Shown: positions 14,643-26,661 of the stretch, one piece after another | Numbering within the stretch: position 1 is the first letter of the stretch | Layout: the number at the start of each line of letters is the position of its first letter | Assembly: GCA_016840095.1 (NCBI GenBank) | Contig: JAEOSZ010000028.1 | Location: forward strand, 1-40,359 | DNA from: Candidatus Heimdallarchaeota archaeon | GTDB taxonomy: Archaea > Asgardarchaeota > Heimdallarchaeia > Heimdallarchaeales > Heimdallarchaeaceae | Direction of reading: 5' to 3' | Length of the DNA stretch: 40,359 nucleotides | Made by a program: the position numbers and the translations under genes | The notes under the pieces: model-generated | What the model was told of the DNA's origin: nothing | What the model saw: the letters and a program-made list of their open reading frames with translations, nothing else | The model's database searches: none

Positions 14643-15509
14643 ATGCAAATTGATAATCATAAGTGTTTTAGTTTAACTAAGAAAGGAAATTCCAATCCAG
14701 AACAATTTATAAAAAATAGATTCAGAAGAGTAGACACTGTTACTAAATCTTTCAAATTGATTCATCCTGAAGATCTGAATTTGTATATGACAAACCTAAA
14801 AGAAAAATTCAGTGAGTATGTAGGCAATTATATTTTTAATACTGATGCATTTGACTGGAAAGTTCTTCAGGAAGAGTTAGAGATATTACCAAATTTTCCT
14901 GAACTTGAAAAACTAGTTTTCTACTATATATGTAAAACAATAAAGTTACCTGAAAATTATTCTTCAGATCAAGGTGAAATAGAATTGGGATATTTTAACA
15001 GAATCAAAGCTCTTGAAAGAGTATCCTATTTTGTAGTCAGAACATTCGTAGATACCTATGGAAAAGAAATAGGAACTGCTATTTACAAAGAAATAGTTCC
15101 ATATCTTCTAGAGGATATGAGGTCGAGAGATACATCTGAAAAACCAGAAGATCCAAAGACTGTTACGATTTTAGATCCCCATAAGAGAAATTTAGATTCA
15201 TGGTGCAAATCAGGATTAGCTGATTTTTCTTACCATATTTTTGATGATTACAAGGTAGTATATCGTTTTGATAGTTGTTTGACCCCTGAAGCTCTGAAGG
15301 AGTTTGATGATCCTGATATAGCTTACTTAAGTTCTTGTTACATCGGCGATGTTCCTGAATTTAATATCGGTAGATCCATCAATCTTCGAAGAACACAAAC
15401 ACTTCACCACGCTAAGTTTTGCGATGAGCTGTACTGGAATAATTATGTTCATCCTGATACTGAACAACCTTCGCTGGAATTCACTGAAAATATTGGAAAA
15501 GATATGTAA
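14643..15509 (+). CDS. L-2-amino-thiazoline-4-carboxylic acid (ATC) hydrolase-like / V4R-fold protein, paralog 1
   Basis: RFDSCL, SSCYIGD, LRRTQTLHHAKFCDE C-terminal signature. Confidence 0.7.
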   Translation: MQIDNHKCFSLTKKGNSNPEQFIKNRFRRVDTVTKSFKLIHPEDLNLYMTNLKEKFSEYVGNYIFNTDAFDWKVLQEELEILPNFPELEKLVFYYICKTIKLPENYSSDQGEIELGYFNRIKALERVSYFVVRTFVDTYGKEIGTAIYKEIVPYLLEDMRSRDTSEKPEDPKTVTILDPHKRNLDSWCKSGLADFSYHIFDDYKVVYRFDSCLTPEALKEFDDPDIAYLSSCYIGDVPEFNIGRSINLRRTQTLHHAKFCDELYWNNYVHPDTEQPSLEFTENIGKDM

Positions 15510-15533
15510 AAAAAGGACAAAGGTGAATTCAAG

Positions 15534-16406
15534 ATGAAAATTGAGACCCACAAGTGTTTTAGCTTAACAAACAGAGGAAAATTTGAACCTGAGAAAATCA
15601 TCAAGGCTCAACTAGATAAAGTAGATTCTGTAACTAGAATGTTCAATAAAATTAAACCTAAAGATCTGGAGTTATATTTATCAAACTTGGAGAATGTGTT
15701 TAGTAAAATTGTAGATGATTATGATTTTAAGCAAGAAGCTTTTGACTGGGACTTAATCAGAAAAGATCTTGAACTTATACATAATTATCCTAAACTTGAG
15801 AAACTAATTTTTCTCTATACTTGTATAATCTTAGAAGTTCCAGTAGAATATGAATCTGGTCAAGGTGAAATAGAACTAGGGTTTTTTGATTGGATTAAAG
15901 TTCTCAGAAGAGTACCATATTATCTAGTTAGAACACTAGTAGATATTTATGGAAAACAGAAAGGAACTGAAATCTATAAAGAGATAGTACCTCTACATTT
16001 AGATGATTTGCTATCAAAAGGCAAGTCAGAAGAACCTGAAGATCCTAAATCTGTTAATATTCTTGAATTTAATGAAAGACAGATAAAATCTTGGTGTGAG
16101 TGTGGATTAGCAGACTTCGCTGTTTGTATTTATGATGACTACAAAGTTGTCTACCGTTTTGATAGTTGTTTAACTCCTGAAGCTCTTAAAGAATTCAATG
16201 ATCCAGATATAGCCTATCTGAGCTCTTGTTATCTGACAGATCATCCGAGATTCAATGAAGGAAGAATAATTCATCTTCGAAGAAAGCAGACACTCCATCA
16301 CTCTGAATTCTGCGACGAGCTTTATTGGAACAATTACGTTCATCCTGAAACAGAACATCCTGCATTAGAATTCATAGAGCATATGGGGAAAGATATGGAG
16401 GAATGA
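15534..16406 (+). CDS. ATC hydrolase-like protein, paralog 2
   Basis: Closely similar to paralog 1 (YKVVYRFDSCLTPEALKEF shared). Confidence 0.7.
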   Translation: MKIETHKCFSLTNRGKFEPEKIIKAQLDKVDSVTRMFNKIKPKDLELYLSNLENVFSKIVDDYDFKQEAFDWDLIRKDLELIHNYPKLEKLIFLYTCIILEVPVEYESGQGEIELGFFDWIKVLRRVPYYLVRTLVDIYGKQKGTEIYKEIVPLHLDDLLSKGKSEEPEDPKSVNILEFNERQIKSWCECGLADFAVCIYDDYKVVYRFDSCLTPEALKEFNDPDIAYLSSCYLTDHPRFNEGRIIHLRRKQTLHHSEFCDELYWNNYVHPETEHPALEFIEHMGKDMEE

Positions 16407-16409
16407 ATA

Positions 16410-17282
16410 ATGGAAGTATTTAGAACAGGTCAGTATGATATTAGTGATCTAGAAAGGTTACAAGAAATCCAGCCACTAGATTATGCAAAAAAAAGTGTAT
16501 TGAAGAGATTGAACTATCTGATTGGTTATCTTAAGAAGGAAATGCCAGAGATCCTTCCAGCTTTTGTTACGAAATTGCAAAAGAATTTTGAGCAACAACT
16601 AAAGACTTCTCTCACAACTAATCAACAATTGGACTTGAAAGAGATAAGTAAAGATTTCTTACATTTGAAGATCTATCCAGATTTACTTAAGCCTGCCTTA
16701 GATTACTTCCTACAATTGCTTGATTATAGTAGTACCAAAAAATGGTTATCTGAAACTATTAAGATACCAAATAGAAACCATATTCAATCATTTCTATATC
16801 ATAGATACTTCAATGCTTTAACTTTGACAGAAATACTAGAAAGAAATCAAGCTGTTAGATTGTTCAAAAGCTATATTGAATCCTATGTGAAATCACTTTC
16901 AGCTTACGGTTCAAAATACGATACATTGGAGGATTTTAGAAATGCTCGAATTCCTAAGGAAGATGATCCTCCAAGCATAGGGTGGGTAATTGTACAGGGA
17001 AAAATTGAGAATGGAAAGTATCCTCAAAGAAAAGATACATGCATGTGGGCAGATGCAATAGATGAATTACCAGATGTAGAATTGAGGTATCTTGCAGCTT
17101 GTTATGGAGATTTTCAAGGTTACAATAACTGTAACGAGAATTTCATCCTAACAATGAAACATACAGTAGTTGAAGGACATCCTTATTGTGATTGCATAAC
17201 TCACGATGTAAGGATAAATAGTGATCTAAATCATCCTTCTAGGGAATTCTTTGATGATTTATGGTCTCAAAAGGATAAATGA
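16410..17282 (+). CDS. ATC hydrolase-like protein, paralog 3
   Basis: KDTCMW, ACYGDF, LTMKHTVVEGHPYCDC. Confidence 0.75.
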   Translation: MEVFRTGQYDISDLERLQEIQPLDYAKKSVLKRLNYLIGYLKKEMPEILPAFVTKLQKNFEQQLKTSLTTNQQLDLKEISKDFLHLKIYPDLLKPALDYFLQLLDYSSTKKWLSETIKIPNRNHIQSFLYHRYFNALTLTEILERNQAVRLFKSYIESYVKSLSAYGSKYDTLEDFRNARIPKEDDPPSIGWVIVQGKIENGKYPQRKDTCMWADAIDELPDVELRYLAACYGDFQGYNNCNENFILTMKHTVVEGHPYCDCITHDVRINSDLNHPSREFFDDLWSQKDK

Positions 17283-17303
17283 AATCAACAAGAGCTGTAT
17301 TAG

Positions 17304-18179
17304 ATGGAATTTAAGGAAAAAGGAAGATATAATCCAGAAGCTTTGGATTATATGGAAAAAGTTCAACCACTTGAGTTTGCAAAACTTTCTCCCCTAAGAA
17401 GATTAAACTACTTATTAGATGTTGTTGAGAATTTAAGATCAGATAGCCTTCAAGAGTATATTGATATATTAATGAAAAATTACAAAGAGAAAATAGATGT
17501 TGAATATATTGATTCTAGCAATCCCTTTCTACTGGAGTTTCTTGAAGATTTAGATAGTTTGAAGAACTATCCTGAGTTAGCAACTTATAATATCAACTTC
17601 TTTCTCAATATTCTTGATTTACCACAGAATAATAAGTGGAAAGTTGAAAAAATGGAAGTCCCTCAAGCAAACTTTCTCAGATCATTCTTAGTGCCAAAGT
17701 ATGTGAATTTGAAATCATTAGTGAAAGCTGTAGGTAGAGAAGAAGGAATTAGCATCTATAAAAAATACATCACAAGCTTCCTTATCTCAATTCATAAAAA
17801 TCAAGAAGATGAGATTGAGGATTTGAGATCACTTCATCAAAAATTTTTTGAAGAAGAACCCAAAGAATCAGAAAGTTGGGTAGTTATCCACAGTGAGCCT
17901 GTAAATGGTAAGCTAGTGTTTAGAAAGGATGTTTGTTTGTGGAATGAATCTCTCTCAGATTTAACTGATTTAGAATTTAAATTTCTAGTCTGCTGCTATG
18001 GAGATTTTCAAGGAATAAGAAGTGAAAACAGTCATTTTATTCTAACAATGGATCATACTATTGCTAAAGGAGATCCTTATTGCAGTTGCATAGTGCATGA
18101 TACAAGAATTGATTGGAAGATAAATCATCCACCGAAAGAATATTGGGATAATATTTGGCCCCTACATGAATGGCAATAA
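17304..18179 (+). CDS. ATC hydrolase-like protein, paralog 4
   Basis: KDVCLW, CCYGDF, LTMDHTIAKGDPYCSC. Confidence 0.75.
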   Translation: MEFKEKGRYNPEALDYMEKVQPLEFAKLSPLRRLNYLLDVVENLRSDSLQEYIDILMKNYKEKIDVEYIDSSNPFLLEFLEDLDSLKNYPELATYNINFFLNILDLPQNNKWKVEKMEVPQANFLRSFLVPKYVNLKSLVKAVGREEGISIYKKYITSFLISIHKNQEDEIEDLRSLHQKFFEEEPKESESWVVIHSEPVNGKLVFRKDVCLWNESLSDLTDLEFKFLVCCYGDFQGIRSENSHFILTMDHTIAKGDPYCSCIVHDTRIDWKINHPPKEYWDNIWPLHEWQ

Positions 18180-20340: not shown

Positions 20341-20739
20341 ATGAGTGAACGAGAAGTGAAGTATTATAAAATGCTAACAAAATTCTATAATACTAAAATG
20401 AAAAACTTTGATGTTAAGGAAGATCTTGATGAACTAGAAGGAAAGAAAGTCTATTTCAAAATGAAAAATGCTGAAATCAATAAGGAGATTCAAGAACAAT
20501 TGCTAAAAATCCGAAAAATGAAAGAAGGAGGAAAAGGCGACAAAGCATTAAAGGAAGAAGCTAAACTCAAGAAGAAAGAATTAGCAATTGCTGAGAACAA
20601 AAAGAAGATTCAGAGTATTATGACAAAAATAGATAAGAAAAAAGGAGAATTTCAAAAAGTTAGAGCTGATATGGAAAAAGCAGAACGAGAAATTAAAACT
20701 GAATTTTCAGATAAATTTACTGAGTTATTAACTGAGTAA
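20341..20739 (+). CDS. Lys/Glu-rich coiled-coil (helical hairpin) protein
   Basis: All-helical composition with a central GGKG turn; directly upstream of the E2. Confidence 0.75.
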   Translation: MSEREVKYYKMLTKFYNTKMKNFDVKEDLDELEGKKVYFKMKNAEINKEIQEQLLKIRKMKEGGKGDKALKEEAKLKKKELAIAENKKKIQSIMTKIDKKKGEFQKVRADMEKAEREIKTEFSDKFTELLTE

Positions 20740-20864: not shown

Positions 20865-21431
20865 TTGGTTCAAACCAGACAAAATATCACTAAATTAAAG
20901 GTGACTAAAATTAGAAAACAAAGAATTATCAAAGACTATGATGCACTTAGAAAACTCCATAAGGAAGGTGTGATTAATCAAGTAAAAGCATTTCCAGGAA
21001 AGAAGAAATCAATGGAACACGTAGCTGTTGGTTTTGTTGGTCCAAAAGGAACTCCATATGCTGGCGGAAAATACAAATTAGAGATTTTATATGGTAAAAA
21101 CTATCCGTATAAACCTCCATACGTTCGACTACATACACCAATTTGGCATCCAAATTTCTGGCCAAATCCCAAAGAATATCCAAATAAAAGAAACATCTGC
21201 TTAGCTTTGGTTGATAATGAATTAGTTGGAAAACATGATGGATGGTCTCCAGCTAAGAATATTACTACGGTTATATACTCAATTCTTGCTATGTTCAATG
21301 TTGAAGGAGCTTATGTTAACCCTAAGGACGTATTTAACAAAGAAGCTGCTTTAGAATTCTTGAATGATAAGAAGAAATTCATTAAAAAGGCTTCAACAAT
21401 TAGCAAGAAATACGCTAAATCCTTCTGGTAA
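20865..21431 (+). CDS. ubiquitin-conjugating enzyme E2 (UBC fold)
   Basis: GPKGTPYAGG, YPYKPP, WHPN, catalytic Cys (NICL, codon 21198-21200), WSPA, NKEAA. Confidence 0.95.
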   Translation: MVQTRQNITKLKVTKIRKQRIIKDYDALRKLHKEGVINQVKAFPGKKKSMEHVAVGFVGPKGTPYAGGKYKLEILYGKNYPYKPPYVRLHTPIWHPNFWPNPKEYPNKRNICLALVDNELVGKHDGWSPAKNITTVIYSILAMFNVEGAYVNPKDVFNKEAALEFLNDKKKFIKKASTISKKYAKSFW

Positions 21432-21458: not shown

Positions 21459-22178
21459 ATGGAAGATGAAAATGATTTTCCTGAGCAATATAAAGTGTTG
21501 CTCAAAAAAATAGAAGCTTTAGAAAAAGCATTAGGACTTAAAGATGTTGAAGATATCCTCAAGGATAAAGTTGATGTAGAAAAAGAAATCTCCGAAGAAA
21601 CAATCACTGAGGAAGATCTACAGATTAAACAAAAGAGTGAGATAGTGATTTCACCTAAGGCATATCTTAAACTAGCTAAACATGCACTAACTTTCGCAAA
21701 TAAAAATATACCAAAGAAAGATTGGGTAGAAGTCATTGGATTACTTACTGGGAGAATAAGACATGAAGATACACCACTTGAGCAGATTTTTGTAGAAGAT
21801 TATTGGCCAGTTGACCAGGGAGATGCAATTAGTGTTGAAATTGTTGATCAAAGGATTTTTACAGAGATTTTTAACAAAAAAGACCAGGACCATTTCATTA
21901 TAGGCTGGGCCCATTCTCATCCAAGCTACTCTCCTTTTCTAAGCGATGATGATTTTCGAACACATCGTAGATATCAAACCTTTTGGAATAAATCAATAGC
22001 TGTAGTTCTTGATCCTCTAATGATATCACCAAAGAATTTTGGAGTAGGGGTTTTCAGAATACATCAAGATAAGAAATCTTACTATGATTTAACAGTGGAC
22101 ATAGATGGTTTGAGCAGTGAAGCAAATTATGAATCTATCAGTCTTTTCATGAAAAATAAGCAAGAAAATGATTCGTAA
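21459..22178 (+). CDS. JAB1/MPN+ (JAMM) metalloprotease, Rpn11/CSN5-like deconjugase
   Basis: EVIGLL and GWAHSHPSYSPFLSDDD (intact E...HxH-x7-S-x2-D). Confidence 0.95.
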   Translation: MEDENDFPEQYKVLLKKIEALEKALGLKDVEDILKDKVDVEKEISEETITEEDLQIKQKSEIVISPKAYLKLAKHALTFANKNIPKKDWVEVIGLLTGRIRHEDTPLEQIFVEDYWPVDQGDAISVEIVDQRIFTEIFNKKDQDHFIIGWAHSHPSYSPFLSDDDFRTHRRYQTFWNKSIAVVLDPLMISPKNFGVGVFRIHQDKKSYYDLTVDIDGLSSEANYESISLFMKNKQENDS

Positions 22179-22202: not shown

Positions 22203-23315
22203 TTGGAACTAAATAACATTAAGACATACTTAGCAATCGCAATAGTAGGATCAACTGTAGGAGTGCTGTATGGAGCAATTGAAAAAGATGTACCAAGAAC
22301 ACTGACTATCTTTTTCATAACTGTGTATGCTGTTATAGCCTTACGATTCATATTAGAAAGAAGACATTATAAGAAACATAAGACAATTCTTGCAAGTACT
22401 CAATTCTTGATATTGCCATTCTTGATTATGTTAATGGGAAACTATATTTCCCCTATAGCTTTCACCTACGAGATATTCGGAATAACCTCAGGGGGAGGTT
22501 CATTCTATTCTCCTTTCAATCTAATCTCAATATCGTTAATACTTCCAGTAGTTATTCTCTCAGTTTACTTTGGAAATTACTATTCAGGCAAATGGCCAGC
22601 AATTGCCATTAATAGAAAAGTAAGAAAAGGAAGAAAAATTCCCTTCTTGATACATACACTTTATGTTGCGATTTTCCTGTTAGGATTTTTCATAAACTGG
22701 CAAATTGATTTTGTATGCTTAATATTTGTTATTCTGTATATTGTGTTCATCTTCAGATACTTCATAGTAGTATATGCTGTGAAATCTAATCAACAAGTTA
22801 GTGTATCTGCCACCAGACGTTCTACTACAGCTAGATCCACTCGCTCATCAACATCAACAAGAAGAACAACTTCTTCTTCAGCAAGTAGTTCTCGTTCATC
22901 TTCAACTAGAACAACTCGACCTACTTCAACAAGAACAACAGCTAGTAGAACAACTCGATCCTCAAGTGTAAGAGTCGATCCAGGGATAGATGTAAGAACA
23001 GCAAAGACTAAAACTACTAAGAAAACTTCAACAACTAAATCTGTTTCAAAAAGTATATTCCCAATAGGAACTCCGAAGAAAGACGAGATGAAATGTATTA
23101 TCTGTTATATGGATTTTGATAAAAAAGATAAGAGAAGAATAATTTTGTGTCCAAATTGTCGTTATCCAGCTCATGAAGATGAATTCATAAGTTGGTTTAA
23201 GACATCAAGGCTTTGTGCTAGATGTAATCAAACAATTTCAACTAGATATGTAAATAACCCTAAATATCGAATAAGTATAAGAATTTATATTGAAAAAGTG
23301 ATTGAGAAGCTATAA
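22203..23315 (+). CDS. 6-TM membrane protein with S/T/R-rich linker and C-terminal RING-variant finger (putative E3 ligase)
   Basis: CIIC-x14-CPNC-x4-H-x2-E...W-x6-CARC at 23094-23225; located in the E2/JAB cluster. Confidence 0.85.
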   Translation: MELNNIKTYLAIAIVGSTVGVLYGAIEKDVPRTLTIFFITVYAVIALRFILERRHYKKHKTILASTQFLILPFLIMLMGNYISPIAFTYEIFGITSGGGSFYSPFNLISISLILPVVILSVYFGNYYSGKWPAIAINRKVRKGRKIPFLIHTLYVAIFLLGFFINWQIDFVCLIFVILYIVFIFRYFIVVYAVKSNQQVSVSATRRSTTARSTRSSTSTRRTTSSSASSSRSSSTRTTRPTSTRTTASRTTRSSSVRVDPGIDVRTAKTKTTKKTSTTKSVSKSIFPIGTPKKDEMKCIICYMDFDKKDKRRIILCPNCRYPAHEDEFISWFKTSRLCARCNQTISTRYVNNPKYRISIRIYIEKVIEKL

Positions 23316-23388
23316 AAATTAGTGTAGCCAATTATTTAAAAACTGTAAAGTTATACGCATGATGAACCATATAAACTAGGATGATAAA

Positions 23389-23976
23389 ATGGCAACTTGG
23401 AAACAATTATCTGCTGCATTCTTACTCTCTCTAACATTGGTAGGAGTATCAATCTATTTCTTCATAGAAGATAATGATTTCCTTGGAAAAGTATTCATAT
23501 TCGCAGCAATATTTGCCTTTCTAACACTTTTCGTAATTTTCAGGAGCCTGTTTTATCTAAAGCATAAAGCAACTTTTAATGAAGTATTTTTTGTTTTCAT
23601 TGTTCCACTTATACCTGTTCTTCTAATTCTAACTCAGGTATTGCTAGGAATTTATGATTCTTTCATCATAACAACAGTAGAAATAACTCCAGATTTTCCA
23701 ACTTACTTCTTTTACATTAATGCAATGGATTTTGCTCTATTACCATATTATATAGTAAGCAACTTCTTGATATTTAGAACATTCATCAGATATCCATTTA
23801 TTAGAATGAAAGGAACAAGTGAAAAAGGAGCTCCACCTAAATTCTTCGGTTTTCTGGTGATGTTTATTATTCCTGCAGTATATATTCTAACCTCATGGTT
23901 CTATTTTGAAAATCTATTCTTGGTAATCTTTGGAGGAGTTTACTTCTATTCAGCACTGTTAATGCTGTTTGTCTAA
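23389..23976 (+). CDS. 6-TM membrane protein, RING-less paralog of the E3 membrane domain
   Basis: Collinear shared motifs with 22203..23315 (IE, YxKHK, N...LP...S, [WY]PxI...KG). Confidence 0.75.
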   Translation: MATWKQLSAAFLLSLTLVGVSIYFFIEDNDFLGKVFIFAAIFAFLTLFVIFRSLFYLKHKATFNEVFFVFIVPLIPVLLILTQVLLGIYDSFIITTVEITPDFPTYFFYINAMDFALLPYYIVSNFLIFRTFIRYPFIRMKGTSEKGAPPKFFGFLVMFIIPAVYILTSWFYFENLFLVIFGGVYFYSALLMLFV

Positions 23977-23988
23977 AAAATAAAATAC

Positions 23989-24699
23989 TCATTTTGGTTT
24001 CTTTTGCTTAGGTTGCTTTGTTTGTGAAGGGTATTTCTGAGTAGGTATTTTTGATTTAGGTATTTTGTCTTGAATAATTTCTTCTATTTGAGATGCAACA
24101 GGAGATGCTCTTTCTTTCTTCTCTTTCTTCTCTTCTCTAGGAATAGGTTTTGAATCCATGCTTTCTATTTCAGAGAATTTATCTTTGTCACTTGCTGGTG
24201 GAACTTCCTCTTTTTTCTCTCTTTCTCTTTTCTCCACAGCCTTAGATTCCATACTTTCTACTTCTCTAAATCGTTCTCTCTTTGGAATTACTTCTTCTTT
24301 CTTATCTTTAGTTTTAGACTTCTTCTCTTCAGGAACATATTTTAGATCTTTAGTTTCTTTGATTTTATCTTGTTTTGGAATTTTTGACTTTGGAATCTTC
24401 TGTTTAGGAATACTTGAGCTTCTTCTAGATGTTTCTTTAAATTGCTCTCCCCTTGGTGCTTTTTCCTGAATTTTTGCTTTTGGTATCTGAGAACTACTTT
24501 TTATGCTAGTTGATTTTTTCATTTGTGATTTTGTTGGAATTGAACTTGCTCTATCCTTTTTTTCTTTTTTAGGAGGGATTAAATTTTGCTCATCTATTCT
24601 TTGTTTAGGTATTTTCTGTTTTGGAATTTTTGAATCTGATGGATACTTCTGTGAAGGAACCTTTGATGAGATGTTTTTCTTCTTCTTTTTGTTTGACAT
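23989..24699 (-). CDS. Lys-rich intrinsically disordered repeat protein (IPK/SxIP repeats)
   Basis: 236-aa ORF with KIPKQ/KIPKS repeats, QKYPS twice, FxExESMxSK twice. Confidence 0.75.
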   Translation of the reverse strand: MSNKKKKKNISSKVPSQKYPSDSKIPKQKIPKQRIDEQNLIPPKKEKKDRASSIPTKSQMKKSTSIKSSSQIPKAKIQEKAPRGEQFKETSRRSSSIPKQKIPKSKIPKQDKIKETKDLKYVPEEKKSKTKDKKEEVIPKRERFREVESMESKAVEKREREKKEEVPPASDKDKFSEIESMDSKPIPREEKKEKKERASPVASQIEEIIQDKIPKSKIPTQKYPSQTKQPKQKKPK

Positions 24700-24954
24700 A
24701 TGTAAGTCATATCCATTTATTGCCTTTCTTCTAGTTGTTCATTCCTCGAAATACCTCGAATTTCAGAACTTCTGTTTCTCTGTTCTAAGTGCTTTTAAAT
24801 ATGGTTTAGTATATCTAGTTAGTATTTCTATATTTACATTACTATTTTGCCCCTTTAGAATACTAAAGAAAAATACTTTTTATAGCGAAAAACGGTAGTT
24901 TTTTAATAGCCCTTAACAATATAGATAAATTGTAATAAACAAGGAATGGTTATT

Positions 24955-25302
24955 ATGAGCGAAGAATTTGAAGAACTATCTTTCGATGAAGAAGAAGAGG
25001 AATTTGAAGAAGAAATAATTTCTAAAACTCCTGCAAAAGAGAAGACACCAGGTGGTAAGAAAATTAGTGTTTATTTCCAAAGCACTATAGGACCATCACC
25101 AAAGCAAGAAAAACTAGTTGTTGCTACAGATGCACCAATAAATGACATCAAATACACTGTTAGTCAAATATTTGGGCTACCAGCAGATGAATTTCATTTA
25201 TCACATGCAGGTAGAACCTGTGATCCAGATGATGTCTTGGAAGATTACGGAGTTGAAGATGGAGATACCATTCTACTTATCCCAGTATCAACAGCAGGAT
25301 AA
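24955..25302 (+). CDS. ubiquitin-like modifier with acidic N-terminal extension, ending ...IPVSTAG
   Basis: beta-grasp pattern IKYTVSQIFGLP...LSHAGR...LEDYGVEDGDTILL; C-terminal Gly; adjacent to E1; alternative start 24946. Confidence 0.9.
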   Translation: MSEEFEELSFDEEEEEFEEEIISKTPAKEKTPGGKKISVYFQSTIGPSPKQEKLVVATDAPINDIKYTVSQIFGLPADEFHLSHAGRTCDPDDVLEDYGVEDGDTILLIPVSTAG

Positions 25303-25401: not shown

Positions 25402-26661
25402 ATGTGTACAATGAACGATAAACTTAAACAACAGTCGAATTTTTTCAGTGAAATATTTTCCGAAGAAGAAACCAAAAGATTTGATAGACAACTTAGATTA
25501 CCAGGATGGAATCAAAAAGCTTTGAAAGATTCTGTTGTAGTAATTGCAGGAATTGGGGGATTAGGGACTGAAATAGCCAAGAATTTGGCAATGGCAGGAG
25601 TAGGAACAATGCACTTAATTGATTTAGATATTATTGAATACTCTAATCTTAACAGACAGATACTATTTTCAGATGCTGATGAAGGAGAACCTAAATCCAA
25701 AGTAGCTGCTAGAACTCTAAAAAAAATTAATCCATATAGTAAGTATATTTGGCATTATTCAAATCTTGAAGATGTATCTCCTGAAATTTATGCAACAGCT
25801 GATTTATTGATTGCTGGATTAGATTCTGTAACAGCGAGATCTGAACTCATCAGAAGAGCTGTTCATTTTCAAAAACATATGATTGATGGAGGAACTGCAA
25901 CTTATTATGGACATGTTTACACATATTCTCCTGGAGTGAATGCGTGTCTTCAGTGTGATCCACAAACTGAAAGAGAAAGAGAAACCCTAGCAGCTTGTAC
26001 TCTAGTTGGGATACCAAGGAAGAGATCACATTGTCTACTTAAAGGACAATTGTTTTTTGAATCTAAAAATAATAGACCTCCAGATACCTCAGCTAAAGAG
26101 GAAATGTTAATCGTTCTAGATTACGCAAATAACTTGGCTACTGAACATTTCCCTGAACAAGGTCAATTTACTCTTGATGAAGTAGTAAAGATGGTTGATC
26201 AGCATGATCCAACAATCATCACAATTAATGCTGTAATAGCTTCACTTCAATCCCAAGAAGCACTGAAGATTTTACATCATGTTAAAGGAATCAAACTTGG
26301 AACAGTTAATACAGACTATGTTATTTACAACGGTTTAGTTGGGAAGTTCTTTTATCTAGAAAAACCTCCAAATAAGAAATGTGCATTATGTGGATTACAT
26401 GCTACTATTATAGAAGAAATCACGATACCTGCTACTTCAACTGTTGATATGCTTCTTTCAATCATTAAGAACAAGGGATATAGTTATGACCCTGAATATG
26501 GGCCTTCTTTCTGGTTAATCGATAAGAAAGACCCAGAAGATGTGGAATTAAATAAAACATTGAAAGAGCAAAATATAAGAAATTTTGAAACTCTCTATGT
26601 TACTGGATTGCTGAAAAACAATAAAGAAACGGATTTGTACATAAGACTTAAACTTAGATAA
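25402..26661 (+). CDS. ubiquitin-like activating enzyme E1 (ThiF family, UBA3/UBA2-like)
   Basis: RFDRQ, GIGGLG, DLDIIEYSNLNRQ, CLQC and CALC Zn site, catalytic Cys in AACTLVGIPRKRSHC, C-terminal UFD-like region. Confidence 0.95.
   Translation: MCTMNDKLKQQSNFFSEIFSEEETKRFDRQLRLPGWNQKALKDSVVVIAGIGGLGTEIAKNLAMAGVGTMHLIDLDIIEYSNLNRQILFSDADEGEPKSKVAARTLKKINPYSKYIWHYSNLEDVSPEIYATADLLIAGLDSVTARSELIRRAVHFQKHMIDGGTATYYGHVYTYSPGVNACLQCDPQTERERETLAACTLVGIPRKRSHCLLKGQLFFESKNNRPPDTSAKEEMLIVLDYANNLATEHFPEQGQFTLDEVVKMVDQHDPTIITINAVIASLQSQEALKILHHVKGIKLGTVNTDYVIYNGLVGKFFYLEKPPNKKCALCGLHATIIEEITIPATSTVDMLLSIIKNKGYSYDPEYGPSFWLIDKKDPEDVELNKTLKEQNIRNFETLYVTGLLKNNKETDLYIRLKLR

Follow-up and report, generated by a model that had tools for sequence, protein, structure and literature searches.

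A RING-less paralog of the membrane domain of a candidate RING ligase in the Ala-Gly ubiquitin-like operon of Heimdallarchaeia

Eukaryotes control membrane proteins by means of multi-subunit membrane E3 ligases. The Hrd1-Der1/Derlin ERAD ligase combines a multi-pass membrane E3, which has a cytoplasmic C-terminal RING, with a RING-less multi-pass partner, and Hrd1 and Der1 move substrates out of the membrane. In prokaryotes, the family PF14446 (Prokaryotic RING finger family 1) is linked to Ub/E1/E2/JAB clusters, and its bacterial members carry membrane helices.

In the yeast Asi complex, Asi2 binds substrate transmembrane domains for ubiquitination by Asi1/Asi3 (PMC6941229). Among archaea, an operon of Ca. 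Caldiarchaeum subterraneum encodes Ub, E1, E2, a small RING finger and Rpn11 (PMC5654768), and an E1/E2/RING E3 cascade of Helarchaeia acts on UEV-Vps23 (10.1101/2023.07.25.550441). The accessible sections of these two reports describe the E3s as a small RING finger and as a RING E3 with an N-terminal loop and mention no membrane domain; the RING proteins used in reconstituted archaeal ubiquitylation cascades are likewise described there without one. The cluster analyzed here is similar to these systems in that a Ubl (ubiquitin-like modifier), an E1, a UBC-type E2, a JAMM protease and a RING protein are encoded together. It differs in the modifier end, which is Ala-Gly here and Gly-Gly in the Caldiarchaeum and Helarchaeia systems as given in the same sections. 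It also differs in having a RING on a six-helix membrane domain, a Glu as the sixth RING ligand and a RING-less paralog of the membrane domain.

The window, that is, the whole stretch of DNA that was analyzed, covers 40,359 nucleotides (contig JAEOSZ010000028.1) of a Heimdallarchaeia genome of 3.4 Mb, which belongs to the family Heimdallarchaeaceae as judged from homolog names. It contains the following features:

20865..21431, + strand: E2 conjugating enzyme (UBC fold, HPN motif, catalytic Cys; Pfam UQ_con, E 9e-26; E2 matches in the PDB)
21459..22178, + strand: JAMM/MPN+ isopeptidase (HSH...D motif; Pfam JAB, E 2e-12; locus maps)
22203..22790, + strand: ORF A, membrane domain, residues 1-196 (AlphaFold model, Lys/Arg loop bias, alignments)
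22791..23051, + strand: ORF A, disordered Ser/Thr/Arg-rich linker (pLDDT <50 at 204-282; alignment)
23052..23315, + strand: ORF A, C-terminal RING-variant domain (invariant columns, Foldseek, weak Pfam RING matches below the cut-off)
23389..23976, + strand: ORF B, RING-less paralog of the A membrane domain, 195 aa (profile comparisons, AlphaFold, dN/dS)
23989..24699, - strand: Lys/Pro-rich low-complexity protein with repeated KIP motifs (reading of the sequence)
24946..25302, + strand: ubiquitin-like modifier with an Ala-Gly end (Pfam ubiquitin; conserved C-terminus)
25402..26661, + strand: E1 activating enzyme (Pfam ThiF, E 2e-52; closest solved relatives UBA3, UBA2 and UBA1)

ORF A (hereafter A; 22203-23315, + strand, 370 aa) begins with TTG, and ORF B (hereafter B; 23389-23976, + strand, 195 aa) begins with ATG and ends with helix 6. 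The two genes lie 73 bp apart on the same strand. Pfam matches and locus maps placed the Ubl, E1, E2, JAMM and RING genes in one conserved cluster, in which the JAMM gene was always found immediately 5' of the RING gene, and the complete Ubl cascade fits within 6 kb in the window. The Ala-Gly terminus was invariant in 23 aligned Ubls, and likewise in a wider set, and the tail Ile-Pro-x-Ser-x-Ala-Gly was invariant across Asgard lineages. A search with the Ubl profile found the window Ubl to be the only clear Ubl in its genome, while two Ala-Gly Ubls per genome were present in many genomes of families f3, f5 and f14. Family f3 is Kariarchaeaceae, as named through a near-identical protein, and f5 and f14 are probably Hodarchaeales and Lokiarchaeia. 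A sigma-70 promoter scan, using a model unsuited to archaea, found fewer sites than in shuffled sequences. In two f5 genomes the E2 frame was intact with no ATG, GTG or TTG near the expected start (L055:10616-11155 and L067:9011-9550, both on the - strand); these E2 genes possibly use a non-standard start codon.

The UFM1 system was considered from the single-Gly end of the Ubl. None of the 23 Ubls matched Pfam Ufm1 and all 23 matched ubiquitin. In addition, the window E1 was nearer to UBA3/UBA2/UBA1 (E 1e-31 to 1e-29) than to UBA5 (1e-10), and the window E2 matched UBE2T/UBC types instead of the UFC1 type. On these comparisons the cluster is not of the UFM1 type, although Ufm1 homologues have been reported from Asgard archaea (PMC12962969).

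The tail of A contains the RING ligand columns C298, C301, C316, C319, H324, E327, C338 and C341 together with W331, which were conserved in all intact homologs. The sixth ligand position is thus an invariant Glu (E327) and not a Cys, and with seven Cys/His ligands in total, one short of the eight of canonical RINGs, the tail is unlike the C3HC4, C3H2C3 and C4HC3 types. A cross-brace would give one Cys4 zinc site and one Cys2-His-Glu site. The top Foldseek matches of A, searched as the whole chain, were RING/U-box domains with a probability of up to 0.98 and E values of 0.1-0.7, and the E2-contacting Trp is present as the invariant W331. PF14446 matched the RING tail weakly (E 0.003-0.02; 15-18 bits against a curated cut-off of 29.1). 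The membrane domain had no bacterial relative at E 0.001. The RING was joined to six membrane helices in all intact homologs. Because the RING gene has a fixed place after those of the E2 and JAMM, A is likely to be the E3 of the cluster.

The first-pass annotation had described the membrane domain of A and B as cryptic paralogs, a duplicated membrane module, pointing to six motif pairs. All six were present and collinear, and HHalign and a joint MAFFT alignment paired them essentially alike; the register of the helix-3 Pro was ambiguous, with P72 of A facing either V72 or P76 of B. Compared as single sequences, A and B gave no significant BLASTP match (24% over 161 aa, E 0.052), and the initial shallow HMMs of A and B did not detect each other in their own genome. 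The HHalign comparison that had been proposed as a check gave a significant match (95-97%): the probability was 95.1-95.9% with E values of 3e-8 to 3e-9 for alignments of 40 and 45 homologs, and 96.6% with an E value of 4.8e-10 over 174 columns for deeper alignments that included distant members. The real pair scored 58.5, far above the reversed profile (13.4) and above the maxima of 100 hydrophobicity-preserving shuffles (22.0) and 100 local shuffles (25.5). When the 199 membrane-like ORFs of the genome were ranked, A came first after B itself with the B profile (28.4; background maximum 20.5), and B came second after A itself with the A profile. Moreover, blind genome searches with the B profile recovered RING-fused genes in G036, G234, G079 and G094, and those with the A profile recovered B genes in G037 and G039, and in family f5 at E 1e-4 to 6e-8. 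The profile of the single-copy proteins of other Asgards (hereafter the outgroup) matched A at 98.9% and B at 98.1%. Convergence of two hydrophobic six-helix proteins of like length would fit the BLASTP value and the silence of the first HMMs, but it is exceedingly improbable against controls of about 25 or less where the real pair reaches 58, a single-copy family that matches both proteins, and a beta-hairpin and loop motifs that both share in register. These comparisons confirmed, at the level of sequence profiles, that the membrane domain of A and B are real, very distant paralogs from a duplication.

AlphaFold modeled six helices in each protein, in line with the approximately six transmembrane segments that had been counted, and the disordered linker and the RING were seen in A alone, as had also been annotated. 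The confidence was high for B (pLDDT 89) and mostly 80-95 for the membrane part of A. Both models run through helices 1-3, a beta-hairpin, a short helix leading into helix 4, a beta-bridged loop and helices 5 and 6; this likeness was judged by the order of elements in the models and not by superposition. In A, the hairpin between helices 3 and 4 lies on the outside. In the RING-less proteins, and in the RING-fused proteins of both Heimdallarchaeia and other Asgards, loops 2-3 and 4-5 were basic and the remaining loops (1-2, 3-4 and 5-6) neutral or acidic. This positive-inside pattern indicates that A and B both have their two ends inside and that the RING is cytoplasmic, and the predicted fold layout and membrane orientation are the same for both proteins. 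A conserved short motif that contains PG lies near G261 in the linker of A.

Foldseek against the PDB turned up no clear relative of the membrane domain (best E 0.2), and the best VIA-align matches (Z 8.2 and 7.7) were to short hairpins of helices or to designed bundles. The best ESM Atlas matches had TM scores of 0.46-0.48 to the MscS_TM region, the PDB sequence profile search had a best E of 2.2, the Atlas feature search gave no usable match, and Pfam and NCBIfam gave no match. The lack of a fold or Pfam relative in these model-based searches would not amount to proof of a new fold. Hrd1, Derlin/rhomboid, MARCH/Doa10 and Asi were not among the Foldseek, VIA-align or profile matches, which are searches that cannot exclude a family. 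The B profile, searched against 1.84 billion representatives, found 22 family members and one repetitive chance match, and no eukaryotic or bacterial relative was evident among them (bacterial: none at E 0.001). Approximately 15 further RING-like proteins were seen in the window's own genome (G000); many have between one and four predicted membrane helices, and three lie in tandem on C11 (loci include C11:38635-41946, C4:15272-16195, C95:81640-82953, C145:13338-14390, C143:45900-46730 and C22:24266-25531). None of them matched the six-helix domain of A and B.

The distribution of the family was surveyed in 400 genomes of the phylum with a joint profile built from A, B and two sequences of Ca. 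Borrarchaeum (family f20, so identified by sequence-cluster names); related genomes in these counts are not independent observations. The profile matched 190 of the 400 genomes. In Heimdallarchaeia, the class of the window, 55 of 83 genomes matched and 50 of these 55 matched twice. The five genomes with a single match are incomplete assemblies (68-88% complete), and in the three that were inspected (G015, G252 and G164) the locus is interrupted by a scaffold gap or by the end of a contig. B was directly 3' of A in 42 of the 50 two-gene genomes, so the adjacency seen in the window proved to be conserved. In the other eight, mostly of f3, two B genes were convergent with A within 1.5 kb and six were on other contigs; several A genes whose B is on another contig had unrelated genes downstream. 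In many f5 genomes the A-B gap was 2-26 bp or the genes overlapped. Families f2, f4 and f6, together with g10, g11 and G030, had neither an A or B gene nor an Ala-Gly Ubl in profile searches, and this joint absence suggests loss of the whole system.

Outside the class, among genomes at least 88% complete, 103 matched the outgroup profile, including 94 of 101 in f14, and only 1 of the 103 had two matches. All frames there were 289-456 aa long, except for two fragments of 119 and 45 aa. The intact loci inspected all had Ubl, E1, E2, JAMM and TM-RING genes in this order with no adjoining RING-less copy, so that the single-copy form of other Asgards occurs without B. The outgroup profile matched none of the 46 well-assembled f11 genomes, nor any genome of several small families that were searched; three weak f11 matches (E about 2e-4) apparently belong to an unrelated membrane protein outside any Ubl cluster, as judged from the one inspected (L082). 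Nothing in these surveys or in the profile comparisons contradicted the annotated homology and adjacency.

Two quick maximum-likelihood trees were built with SH-aLRT support, without bootstrap and unrooted beyond the family; for the second, four long-branch rows and near-duplicates were removed. The family fell into three clades (RING-less, RING-fused of Heimdallarchaeia, and RING-fused of other Asgards), with supports of 100, 91 and 98, respectively, in the second tree, and of 99, 99 and 95 in the first, where one long-branch outgroup row fell apart. The same lineages occur inside both paralog clades, which indicates that the duplication is older than their split. With the other Asgards taken as outgroup, the simplest account of these trees would be a single tandem duplication basal to the Heimdallarchaeia lineages carrying the system, with a direction and timing that are inferred, the tree being unrooted. 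An older duplication followed by loss in other Asgards would also be compatible with them.

The loop motif of the ancestor is divided between the two copies. F68, P72 and P115 (A numbering) were conserved throughout the family. The Asn of loop 2-3, invariant in the outgroup, is kept in B (N64, followed by E65) and is Ala in A, and just past helix 4 both B (Y135) and the outgroup have an invariant Tyr, a position taken by Tyr or Trp in A. The helix-3 Pro, E52 and R138 are fixed in A; at the two charge columns B has R52 (80%) and mostly Glu (60%). Such an exchange of charges would be consistent with a conserved contact linking the two cytoplasmic loops. The dN/dS of B was 0.03-0.16 in close pairs, which places B under strong purifying selection with no decay, and mean divergence was lower in B (1.43) than in the membrane domain of A (1.81). 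A deep-branching RING-less member (P0109, L047:58-777), on a metagenomic contig of 912 bp, has a 40-residue Ser/Arg-rich acidic tail, which may be a linker remnant from the RING-loss step.

We propose the following history. The Ala-Gly Ubl operon (Ubl, E1, E2, JAMM) would originally have ended in a membrane protein of six helices whose cytoplasmic tail is a RING variant, its probable E3. In an ancestor of the Heimdallarchaeia lineages having the system, this gene would have been duplicated in tandem; the downstream copy would have shed the linker and RING to become B, and both copies would have diverged and been retained. B would then lie in the same membrane as A, in the same orientation, and serve as its non-catalytic partner. 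Its conserved cytoplasmic loops may hold or recognize a membrane substrate or signal, and the RING of A, on its flexible linker, would bring the Ubl-charged E2. The splitting of a single membrane RING E3 into a catalytic and a non-catalytic subunit is, on balance, the best explanation overall. That B is such a subunit is argued for by its origin from the ligase's own membrane domain, its orientation, the joint retention of both genes after their separation, their joint absence with the Ubl and the near-overlap of the genes in f5; B is retained even where it has moved away from A. The parts of this proposal differ in strength. It is likely that A and B act in a shared pathway, and the chances of a physical A-B heteromer appear even. 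B is a plausible substrate receptor or cofactor, but a division of labor in which B recognizes the substrate seems doubtful for now. Adjacency is also the expected relic of a tandem duplication even without interaction, and the 73-bp gap leaves room for a B promoter of its own. Complex prediction with the membrane domains and alignments scored 0.00 in two runs in which the controls did not fold, and so weighs neither for nor against a complex. A mirror-tree analysis of 26 genomes, a weak method applied to kindred genomes, gave no special A-B signal (partial r of 0.29, compared with 0.62 for B-JAMM).

Alternatively, B may have acquired an independent function once it had been duplicated, such as that of a homo-oligomeric membrane sensor or scaffold, possibly with the KIP-repeat protein and with no complex with A. 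The position of B apart from the operon in several f3 genomes, often with the KIP-repeat gene as its neighbor (L029, L028, L026, L042, L046 and L051), and the B-specific invariant residues N64, E65, R130, R134, Y135, R139 and G147 are consistent with this. We nevertheless regard it as unlikely, because no well-assembled genome lacking A or the Ala-Gly Ubl had B, and in many f5 genomes the genes of A and B overlap or almost abut.

Equally within the same pathway, B could be a regulator or target of A, either a decoy that dilutes or inhibits A oligomers or a preferred membrane substrate. B lacks the catalytic part, shares the orientation of A and is kept together with it, and a RING borne on an 80-residue linker could reach the conserved basic cytoplasmic loops of B. 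For a substrate, however, it is poorly equipped, having no cytoplasmic tail and no Lys column conserved at 80% or more, and the deep conservation of its Arg, Asn and Gly residues better suits a structural or binding role. We give this reading little credence.

The first-pass annotation had also suggested a channel pair, a reading that is disfavored here. Two related six-helix halves in the same orientation, one of them with a cytoplasmic RING, might build a conduit of 6+6 helices with pseudo-symmetry, or a pair that thins the membrane, through which substrates are extracted as by Hrd1/Der1. However, the conserved charged and polar residues are on the cytoplasmic loops, where helices 2-3 and 4-5 end, rather than in the helices themselves, whose conserved positions are mostly Gly, Pro, Phe, Ser and Thr; nor was an AAA-ATPase or proteasome gene among the conserved cluster genes mapped, the flanking genes being mostly unannotated. 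Judged from these residues, a conduit is very improbable, and a retrotranslocation channel is the least likely of the functional rivals.

If the splitting of the ligase into a catalytic and a non-catalytic subunit is true, A and B would be an archaeal two-subunit membrane ubiquitin ligase, organized like Asi or Hrd1-Der1 but from its own parts. Asi1/Asi2/Asi3 is the closest functional analogy, and the searches revealed no link to it in sequence or fold; B is paralogous to the membrane domain of A, whereas Asi2 is, to our knowledge, not a paralog of that of Asi1/Asi3. Hrd1 and Der1 are also unrelated to each other as far as we know, Der1 being a rhomboid pseudoprotease, in contrast to the paralogs A and B, and no Hrd1 or Derlin membrane domain appeared in the sequence or fold matches. 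Hrd1, Derlin, Asi and MARCH would thus serve as analogies and not as demonstrated relatives. Sequence and fold searches found no eukaryotic descendant of the membrane domain, and at present A-B can be said to parallel the eukaryotic complexes but is not a demonstrated ancestor of them. In the openly searchable literature, which leaves aside subscription papers, no description of the membrane domain or of the A-B pair was found.

The pair is a testable candidate for a membrane E3 in archaea and a case of subunit specialization by duplication that can be dated, with one gene in most system-bearing Asgard lineages and two in Heimdallarchaeia. Extant states from before and after the subunit split could be compared if the proposal is true, and the compact cluster means that the cascade could be rebuilt in vitro. 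Heimdallarchaeia have been placed as the eukaryote source and found to be rich in duplications by Eme et al. (2023; PMC10307638). It is conceivable, though short of probable, that in this class a pan-Asgard Ala-Gly Ubl E3 became by duplication an obligate heteromer of a catalytic subunit and a substrate receptor.

Several other genes recurred around the operon. The Lys/Pro-rich KIP-repeat protein adjoins B in many Heimdallarchaeia, even where B has left the operon (window 23989-24699, - strand; L026:3699-4643, L028:5842-6492, L029:3758-4423, L042:8608-9288, L046:8603-9739 and L052:7114-7863), and some f14 genomes (L071 and L081) encode KIP-like proteins in the vicinity of the operon. The KIP-repeat protein may be an additional component, or else a substrate. 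A protein of 120-160 aa with a faint VapB-antitoxin-like match recurs beside the operon in f3, f5 and f7 genomes (L026:3308-3691, L028:6489-6971, L046:9752-10189, L042:1186-1551 and L052:13776-14225) and is missing from the window cluster. It is probably DNA-binding and thus a candidate regulator. In f14, a protein of 260-280 aa whose N-terminal part weakly matches a zinc ribbon and whose C-terminal domain is Ubl-like is conserved 5' of the operon, as is a winged-helix regulator (L068:2871-3680, - strand; L069, L071, L081, L084 and L085).

In Borrarchaeum, a HerA-like ATPase with a fused C-terminal Ubl of the Ala-Gly type lies beside the operon, and a Ubl fusion of similar size was seen in f33 (loci of the two kinds: L048:14072-15814, - strand; L049:411-2219, + strand; L076:8692-10449, - strand). 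In the window, a Lys/Glu-rich coiled-coil protein of 132 aa is encoded 5' of the E2 gene (20341-20739, + strand) and recurs near the cluster in several members of the genus, with varying position. Furthermore, four tandem ORFs of 288-291 aa occupy 14643-18179 (+ strand) of the window, the last of which matches ATC_hydrolase (PF14196), and ORFs of similar size lie near the cluster in the relatives L031, L032 and L034.
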